Below are positions 54,027 through 54,518 of a stretch of DNA of 64,000 nt, one piece after another. Within the stretch, counting starts at the first letter, position 1; each line of letters starts with the position of its first letter. Location: NCBI GenBank assembly GCA_041648455.1, contig JBAZOZ010000001.1, positions 7,823-71,822 on the forward strand, in the 5' to 3' direction. The DNA is from Candidatus Pacearchaeota archaeon. Lineage in GTDB: Archaea > Nanobdellota > Nanobdellia > Pacearchaeales > GW2011-AR1. The notes under the pieces were generated by a model. The model was not told the origin of the DNA and made no database searches. It was given only the letters and a program-made list of their open reading frames with translations. Made by a program: the position numbers and the translations under genes.

Positions 54027-54518
54027 ATATTTTTTAGAAGAAAATTCTTTATAAACTTTTCTGTGAAAATAAGTAGATTTAAGAATATATATTATTATCG
54101 AAATAATTAAGATTTATTAATTTATTGGTCTCAGACCCCTTAGTTTCATGTGGAAATGTTTATAAATTAAATTGAAATTTTTTTCTTATTTTTATAGTTA
54201 TAAATATTTATATTATAGAGTATATAATAATAATAATAATAATAATAATAATAATAATAATAATAATAATAATAATAAAGATTACAAGGGTTATAATGAT
54301 GGGTAATTATCAAGATAGTCTAGTTTTCCATAGGAAATTATGGTGTTTTTCTTTTTCAGTAGTTAGAAGGATTTATAAAAAGAAAAACATTTCTCTCGTT
54401 GGAAAATTTAATTTTCAAATTTTTTCCATAGGAAATAGACGTGGGGGGTATTATATATATTGTGTAACCTAAACCATTAAATAATCTAAGAGGTAAATTT
54501 AAAATAAAGAGGAATGAA
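54027..54518. promoter_or_regulatory. candidate chromosomal replication origin (oriC) upstream of cdc6/orc1
   Basis: ORB-like dyads TTTTCCATAGGAAAT at 54324-54338 and 54422-54436; the second is followed by GACGTGGGGGG (G-string). Near-palindrome TTGGAAAATTTAATTTTCAA at 54399-54418. (TAA)18 AT-tract could serve as the DUE. Confidence 0.55.
54225..54278. repeat. (TAA)18 microsatellite
   Basis: Read directly from the sequence. Confidence 0.95.

Follow-up and report, generated by a model that had tools for sequence, protein, structure and literature searches.

The oriC1 replication origin of Sulfolobus (Saccharolobus) contains three origin recognition boxes (ORBs), two of which are inverted around an A/T-rich duplex-unwinding element (DUE) and are both essential; the orc1-1 gene is adjacent and the DUE is largely insensitive to mutation (PMC12141716). 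The present work concerns a 64,000-nucleotide stretch of DNA from a Candidatus Pacearchaeota archaeon (the window), in which an intergenic region of 492 bp (54027-54518) separates a minus-strand gene for a PRC-barrel protein (53766-54026) from a plus-strand orc1/cdc6 gene that starts at 54519. Pacearchaeota are uncultivated archaea with tiny genomes and are probably symbionts. Judged from its sequence, the intergenic region is very likely to be the chromosomal replication origin of this organism, of the oriC1 type that is built from ORBs and an Orc1-1 initiator. Replication origins have not previously been characterised in Pacearchaeota, and no ORB-level description for any DPANN archaeon was found in the literature searched. 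The locus adds to the known Orc1-1/ORB type of origin.

Four ORBs are discussed below, numbered ORB4, ORB3, ORB2 and ORB1 in the direction of cdc6. The resemblance to Sulfolobus oriC1 lies in the inverted ORBs around an A/T-rich DUE, in the adjacent initiator gene and in the largely free sequence of the DUE. The Pacearchaeota locus differs from it in having four ORBs, arranged as two plus two, instead of three, in the cdc6 promoter that is locked between directly repeated ORBs in a rigid 98-bp unit, and in a variable linker rich in microsatellites that separates the A/T block from ORB2. Furthermore, the G-strings of ORB1 and ORB2 read GTGTGrG and GGTGT rather than GGGGT. A counterpart of the Sulfolobus ucm motif or of its binding protein UBP was not identified, although no search aimed at one was made.

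A comparable location, beside cdc6 and dp1, is found for the origin of Pyrococcus and the Thermococcales, where the full order is presumably oriC-cdc6-DP1-DP2. The Pyrococcus ORBs have perfectly conserved TTCC and GAA motifs, substitutions in or around these motifs lower Cdc6 binding, and a second ORB cluster that is also bound by Cdc6 lies within the coding sequence of dp1 (PMC1904270). A coding-embedded ORB is found here as well, but it is located upstream, in a winged-helix gene and not in dp1. Other differences are an HD-domain gene that separates DP1 from DP2, the lack of multiple arrays of 13-bp mini-ORBs and the presence of a microsatellite linker.

The predicted ORBs of the Methanomassiliicoccales have the form GTTCCAGTGGAAATGA-AGGGGT (PMC4153887, Table 2) and are paired, inverted and located next to orc1/cdc6.1. 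The ORB4 sequence of relatives of the window, TTCCACTGGAAATGAAGGGGTT, is nearly identical to this form. The Methanomassiliicoccales origins are likewise predictions, and neither a microsatellite nor an embedded promoter module is described for them (PMC4153887). The published archaeal ORB consensus of Pelve et al., as quoted in PMC4153887, is CTTCCAGTGGAAACGAAAGGGGT.

ORB sites and conserved blocks

The initial annotation of the window proposed a candidate oriC on the basis of an ORB-like 15-mer occurring twice about 98 bp apart, a G-string after the second copy, a (TAA)18 tract upstream of the dyads, extreme AT-richness and the gene order cdc6-DP1-HD-DP2. The 15-mer, TTTTCCATAGGAAAT, indeed has exactly two copies in the window, at 54324-54338 and 54422-54436 (98 nt from start to start), and the second copy is directly followed by the G-string AGACGTGGGGGG, which ends at 54447. 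The next-best match in the window has two mismatches, and the number of matches with up to three mismatches is at chance level (14 found, 15 expected). The 13-nt core TTCCANNNGAAAY gives six matches where 1.27 are expected, a number that is reached in none of 100 shuffled sequences, and five of the six lie within 1.9 kb (52513-54436). The lowest GC content of the 64 kb, 0.249, is found in the 2-kb segment 53001-55000, in agreement with the AT-richness that had been reported. Because the window also carries tRNAs and a 5S rRNA, it must be chromosomal.

The conservation of these elements was examined in relatives collected by a one-genome-per-species scan, which gave 80 loci with Cdc6 proteins that are 76-82% identical. 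Counts out of 81 sequences refer to these relatives plus the window, and counts out of 58 to 57 relatives plus the window. An iterated nhmmer search seeded with 54315-54455 revealed a right module of 123 nt, composed of ORB2, the cdc6 promoter and ORB1, that occurs once in every one of the 81 sequences, on the cdc6 strand and 5-219 nt upstream of the cdc6 ATG. In the window it covers 54325-54447. Its consensus is formed by TTCCAtaaGAAATnnAGGTGT, a T-tract, AGTAGT, yATAA-n3-TTTATATAA, about 17 nt, CG, about 25 variable nt, and TTTCCAtagGAAAtnaaCGTGTGrG. The two dyads that had been noticed are therefore the ends of one rigid conserved unit, and both their consensus match and the presence of this module upstream of cdc6 in the 80 relatives bear out the ORB assignment.

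ORB2 (54326-54346, plus strand) has the sequence TTCCATAGGAAATTATGGTGT and corresponds to the first dyad, which is oriented toward the A/T block. It is conserved in 79 of the 81 sequences, and in the other two it is removed by a contig end or gap. ORB1 (54424-54447, plus strand; TTCCATAGGAAATAGACGTGGGGGG) is the second dyad with its G-string and has the consensus TTTCCAnnnGAAAtnaaCGTGTGrG in relatives. The distance between ORB1 and ORB2 is 97-98 bp in relatives where both starts were read. An explanation of the ORB1 G-string as only a Shine-Dalgarno sequence was discarded; it lies 5-9 nt from the ATG in some relatives, but it is kept at 40-220 nt in others and in the window.

Elements beyond the initial annotation are the promoter between the dyads and two further ORBs, both on the minus strand. 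The ORBs were found with a position weight matrix (PWM) derived from the module sites and used at a threshold of 12 bits. In the 64 kb this matrix detects four sites, all within 52502-54447, and when 1.04 Mb of related DNA was scanned only 5 weak matches were found elsewhere. ORB3 (54135-54155; TTCCACATGAAACTAAGGGGT; PWM score 23.0) is an inverted ORB with a GGGGT G-string and with its dyad directed toward the A/T block. An equivalent inverted site is present 81-483 bp upstream of ORB2 in 58 sequences. ORB4 (52502-52525; TTCCACTGGAAATGAAAGGGTTCC / TTCCACTGGAAATGAAAGGGTT; PWM score 19.9) is a canonical ORB situated inside a gene. Equivalents of these two minus-strand sites occur in nearly all relatives for which enough upstream sequence is available. 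ORB3 and ORB4 fit the published 23-nt consensus, and likewise the Methanomassiliicoccales form, over core, spacer and G-string (about 21 nt), whereas ORB1 and ORB2 keep the TTCCA-N3-GAAA core and have the variant G-strings mentioned above. All four sites contain the TTCC and GAA motifs of the Pyrococcus ORBs within the core. Repeated sites with this core and a G-string about 4-7 nt downstream are characteristic of archaeal origins of the Orc1-1/ORB type.

Together with the A/T-only block that follows it, ORB3 forms a left block, which nhmmer found once in 63 of the 81 sequences; in those without it the upstream part is cut off by contig ends. It maps to 54126-54228 in the window. The A/T-only block itself (54156-54223), a candidate core DUE, contains the TATA-like TTTATAAAT beside ORB3 and, in addition, a T-tract and TTATAAATATTTATATTATAGAGTATATA. 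Across the 58 sequences this block of about 65-85 nt aligns in register; the TATA-like sequence, TTTAAAAAG or TTTATAAAT, directly adjoins the ORB3 dyad, and the T-tract is accompanied by TTATAAAAATTTATATTATATA. The presence of both blocks means that the origin region is made up of the left block, a variable linker (54229-54324) and the right module, with the linker spanning 7-408 bp between the two blocks across relatives. With windows of 60, 100 or 150 bp alike, duplex stability in the 64 kb is lowest in the spacer between ORB3 and ORB2, at 54160-54309, where it deviates about 4.8 standard deviations from the mean at 100 bp. ORB3 and ORB2 flank 170 bp at 88% AT, and across relatives the AT content of the spacer is 88% on average. 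The A/T block could be the core of the DUE, a site for a nucleoid protein (compare the ucm motif and UBP of Sulfolobus), or a promoter reading into the linker.

The gene that contains ORB4 (52102-52887, minus strand) encodes a coiled-coil and winged-helix protein of 261 amino acids. ORB4 is in frame and encodes S-T-G-N-E-R-V-P (S-T-G-N-E-x-V-P across relatives). It occurs in about 54 relatives at 1.5-2.4 kb upstream of the right module, with two outliers at up to 4.3 kb. Codon use was compared in 54 orthologous instances that were collected by a search anchored on the peptide, in which codon choice plays no part. The Ser codon is TCC in 54/54 instances against a genomic share of 8%, the second Gly codon is GGG in 53/54 (genomic share 19%), and the Asp codon at the locus is always GAC (22%). 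Since synonymous sites should be saturated at such divergence, the ORB4 DNA itself is under selection. A precedent for an ORB within a gene is the Cdc6-bound cluster in Pyrococcus dp1 (PMC1904270). This cluster has no counterpart in the dp1 gene of the window, where the PWM found no ORB of at least 12 bits. Directly 3' of ORB4 is a (GACA)n coding microsatellite (52470-52500, minus strand) that encodes TDRQ repeats. Just upstream of ORB4, in the same gene, a 21-bp sequence that encodes IPAHQQI is tandemly repeated four times (52557-52642).

Between ORB2 and ORB1, the right module contains a T-tract followed by the AGTAGT motif (54344-54363, plus strand; TGTTTTTCTTTTTCAGTAGT), which form near-invariant columns in the alignment of 81 sequences, and an element resembling a transcription factor B recognition element (BRE) plus TATA box (54365-54380, plus strand; AGAAGGATTTATAAAA, with the conserved consensus TTTATATAA). 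A conserved CG at 54397-54398, located 26 nt downstream of this element, is a candidate transcription start. Elsewhere in the genome a purine-rich BRE plus TTTATAAA precedes the start by about 26 nt (5S rRNA and several leaderless genes), and the element between the two ORBs fits this pattern. From the putative start to ORB1 the sequence shows no conservation among relatives. A hairpin formed in the window by TGTTTTTCTTTTT and AAAAAGAAAAACA (54344-54356 / 54377-54389) was dropped because it is not conserved either. At the other end of the intergenic region, the divergent PRC-barrel gene has a predicted promoter with a TATA box at 54047-54056 (minus strand), about 26 nt before the ATG, which fits the genomic pattern and is conserved in close relatives.

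The gene next to the right module (54519-55727, plus strand) encodes an Orc1/Cdc6 protein of the Orc1-1 class with the Pfam domains Cdc6_C, Cdc6_lid and AAA. The best matches in the PDB are Orc1-1 from S. solfataricus (2qby_A, E 3.5e-108) and ORC1 from A. pernix (2v1u, E 1.1e-90), with Orc1-3 far behind. Both structures were crystallised on ORB DNA. Sequence identity to the S. solfataricus protein is about 55%, as estimated by eye. This initiator of the ORB-binding class is the only Cdc6 encoded in the window, and it is 100% identical to a protein annotated from a metagenome-assembled genome of Candidatus Pacearchaeota.

The variable linker and its microsatellites

The (TAA)18 tract is a perfect microsatellite at 54224-54278 on the plus strand (18.3 copies with 100% match in Tandem Repeats Finder) and lies inside the variable linker. 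It is the only long repeat of a short unit in the window; only the 21-bp tandem repeat beside ORB4 outscores it. The remainder of the linker (54279-54324) is non-conserved and has no counterpart in relatives. Arrays of the (AAT)n class, 18-84 nt long, occupy the same linker position in many relatives, a (TAG)n array is found in two and (GTATA)14 in one, and linker repeats with units of 4-6 nt also occur. Of the 58 measured ORB3-ORB2 spacers, 19 have no repeat of at least 12 nt. The initial annotation considered a long microsatellite in an origin unusual, which does not hold within this clade, and the tract falls outside the conserved A/T block, in the variable linker. The literature searched contained no account of a microsatellite within an archaeal origin, which does not prove novelty.

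A census of perfect repeats of at least 18 nt in the relatives gave 38 microsatellites in 34 kb of linker zone (1.11 per kb) and 32 in 1009 kb elsewhere (0.032 per kb), an enrichment of about 35-fold. As many as 28 of the 32 outside the linker are (GACA)n repeats beside ORB4. The linker is also a frequent contig-end site, since in 22 of the 80 related loci the contig stops no more than 500 bp upstream of ORB2, and some contigs (L003, L048, L050, L086 and L087) start inside an (AAT)n array.

Copy number varies between strains, as a comparison with a near-identical one (L088) shows. Over the 12.7 kb that L088 has in common with the window only 2 single-nucleotide polymorphisms occur, yet it has (TAA)16 where the window has (TAA)18. 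The two also differ in the 21-bp coding repeat beside ORB4, which is present in two copies in L088 and in four in the window; with this in-frame difference of 42 bp, the coding repeats beside the origin are as variable as the TAA tract. In a separate pair of assemblies, L084 and L085, no difference is seen across the repeat. When JGI metagenome contigs were scanned for exact copies of the right flank of the repeat, no match was obtained. In another relative (L081, Cdc6 90% identical; 1167-1847) the linker has an insertion of about 140 nt with terminal inverted repeats (…GCTCTGTCCGGAG…/…TCGGACAGAGC…), and its ORB1 region is tandemly duplicated.

Because linkers of only 7 bp occur and a third of the spacers (the 19 mentioned above) are without a repeat, the TAA tract is most likely a tolerated filler, generated by slippage, that extends the zone of low duplex stability and is not a required element. 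The range of linker lengths and the many repeat-free linkers also argue against the suggestion that origin firing depends critically on the length of the repeat. The microsatellites could be more than filler. They may be a mutational footprint of DNA that is bound by the initiator or at which replication initiates, or a selected trinucleotide lattice for unwinding that tunes efficiency. These two possibilities were considered because, in about 1 Mb, perfect microsatellites are found almost only in the origin linker and beside ORB4, but we regard them as improbable. The lattice would be a counterpart of the bacterial DnaA-trios, which are unwinding elements with trinucleotide periodicity adjoining initiator boxes. 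Similar to these are the A/T-rich repeats with a period of 3 nt near initiator boxes, with units in the clade that are mostly TAA/AAT, and TAG in two relatives. Unlike DnaA-trios, the arrays are absent in many relatives, may have units of 4-6 nt and are not at a fixed distance from an ORB. Archaeal Orc1 is not known to bind single-stranded DNA with a 3-nt periodicity. If the microsatellites were a footprint, they would mark a site where replication starts or stalls; if they formed a lattice, the strain-variable length of the repeat would tune origin efficiency.

Origin model and alternative explanations

In view of the above, the following scheme can be proposed for the locus. An Orc1-1-type initiator would bind the four ORBs as two plus two, ORB4 and ORB3 being on the minus strand and the other two on the plus strand. 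The inner sites, ORB3 and ORB2, are a mutually inverted pair with the dyads facing the A/T-only block and the G-strings distal. On the model of Sulfolobus oriC1, MCM would be recruited to the easily melted stretch by ATP-bound Orc1 on these two sites, and bidirectional replication would begin there. ORB2 and ORB1 bracket the predicted BRE/TATA promoter that reads into cdc6, and the same sites probably confer negative autoregulation. The (TAA)18 tract would arise by replication slippage and be tolerated between the A/T block and ORB2. The sequences directly show the anatomy of the region, its conservation, the match to the consensus, the class of the initiator, the instability of the duplex and the polymorphism in copy number; Orc1 binding, MCM loading, initiation and autoregulation are the functions that we infer for this region. 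The earlier proposal of a candidate oriC gains support from the conservation of the ORBs, the inverted ORB across the A/T-only stretch and the Orc1-1-like initiator, and all sequence-level properties that could be checked are in agreement with it except for the skew.

The skew is one of several observations that weigh against an origin at this position. GC skew at third codon positions has no inflection at the site: to the left and to the right of it G prevails on the plus strand, whether the window is taken by itself or the 80 relatives are pooled. This analysis, which reached 8 kb to each side in the relatives and, for the window, 10 kb to the right, is confounded by conserved gene content and by the short flanks. 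A skew is weak evidence in archaea; according to a recent survey (PMC12999951) it is mainly driven by coding rather than by replication. In another DPANN archaeon the origin predicted from skew adjoins cdc6 (PMC5905446). In the relatives, genes on both sides tend to point away from the site, with 301 genes on the minus and 122 on the plus strand to the left, and 318 on the plus and 64 on the minus strand to the right. A second point is the close integration of ORB1 and ORB2 with the cdc6 promoter; taken alone, these two sites would also fit pure autoregulation. Third, Cdc6 and the presumed origin of Thermococcus kodakarensis are reportedly dispensable (PMC5663688), so an ORB cluster does not prove use as an origin.

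These points lead to the explanation that competes best with an origin, namely that the ORBs are operators only, with which Orc1 regulates its own gene and neighbouring genes while replication starts elsewhere or is origin-independent and driven by recombination. The fixed spacing at which ORB2 and ORB1 bracket the conserved BRE/TATA promoter would be accounted for, as would the absence of a skew flip. Origin-independent replication has been reported in Thermococcus (PMC5663688), and non-initiator Orc1 paralogues can be transcription regulators (PMC9738581). Such a regulatory role would leave unexplained why a full inverted ORB3 is found across a conserved A/T-only block, why this block is the duplex-stability minimum of the window, and why ORB4 is embedded in a coding sequence. 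The protein, moreover, belongs to the Orc1-1 initiator class and has no other Cdc6 beside it in the window, and known origins combine both roles. We therefore consider it unlikely that the sites serve as operators alone.

A different possibility is that the dyads are recognised by another DNA-binding protein, for example a neighbouring winged-helix protein, and resemble ORBs by coincidence. Three small winged-helix or helix-turn-helix proteins are encoded within 3 kb upstream, and the departure of the ORB1 and ORB2 G-strings from GGGGT might point in this direction. It is nevertheless very improbable, in view of the roughly 21 nt over which ORB3 and ORB4 agree with the pan-archaeal consensus, G-string spacing included, the core with the Pyrococcus motifs (PMC1904270) that is common to all four sites, and the position beside an Orc1-1 gene, which is the expected one. 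That the right module is a structured non-coding RNA or a regulatory element of the 5' untranslated region, as could be imagined since the conserved promoter would transcribe through ORB1 and give a 5' leader of about 120 nt in the window strain, is effectively refuted and has a negligible chance of being correct: there is no Rfam match at E <=1, shuffled sequences fold at least as well as the leader (z = +1.44), neither base pairs nor covariation are predicted when RNAalifold is run on 40 homologues, and conservation is lacking from the putative start to ORB1. A chromosomal origin of the Orc1-1/ORB type thus remains the explanation that we favour.

Gene neighbourhood and significance

Downstream of cdc6 the genes for the small subunit of DNA polymerase D (DP1; 55812-57377), an HD-domain protein (57588-58661) and the large subunit (DP2; 58666-62136, 1156 amino acids) follow on the plus strand; Pfam searches identified all of these and cdc6, which establishes the gene order on which the initial annotation had relied. 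An unusually long gap (57378-57690), which includes a 19-bp repeat present 2.7 times (57490-57541), separates DP1 from the ATG-start form of the HD gene; the PWM found no ORB in it. In one relative (L084:13930-18825) the large subunit has 1631 amino acids and contains an intein with a LAGLIDADG endonuclease, while DP2 of the window is without intein. The same relative has an NT5C-family gene between the HD gene and DP2, which is not so in the window.

On the other side, the genes 51311-51958 (plus strand) and 52102-52887 (minus strand), the latter with ORB4, are convergent and encode proteins of similar build, in which a Q/T-rich repeat linker connects a coiled coil at the N-terminus with a winged helix at the C-terminus. 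A perfect (GCTGTCCAAACA)3 is present in the first of these genes. Weak matches to PF13730 (HTH_36) and PF21984 (DnaD_N) are found in relatives of the second protein, and a role of the pair in connection with the origin is possible. Searches of the small neighbouring proteins against NCBIfam and PHROGs gave no informative function. Further away, at about 4 kb from the origin, an IS5-family transposase is encoded (49605-50534, plus strand; NCBIfam, E 2.9e-30). At about 7 kb there are a gene for a tyrosine recombinase with Phage_integrase domains (46745-47608, minus strand) and one with a weak Recombinase match (46150-46686, minus strand), both annotated from identical genes in L088. The tyrosine recombinase could be of the XerA type or an integrase of a mobile element. 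In the region 30843-31574 a stand-alone 5S rRNA gene (31460-31574) lies near tRNA-Arg and tRNA-Gly, and 16S and 23S rRNA genes were not found in the 64-kb window.

What sets the clade apart from the known origins is the rigid ORB-promoter-ORB module, the ORB inside a gene, and the microsatellite-rich linker that breaks assemblies and varies between strains. ORB4 with its frozen synonymous codons is a clear case of a DNA site that constrains a coding sequence, and the variable microsatellites that are restricted to the origin offer a natural case for asking whether initiation sites promote slippage. For the clade as a whole, the work provides an origin model of two conserved blocks with four ORBs and an embedded cdc6 promoter. 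Such a model makes it feasible to estimate growth rates from read depth, to orient genomes and to test Orc1 binding biochemically.

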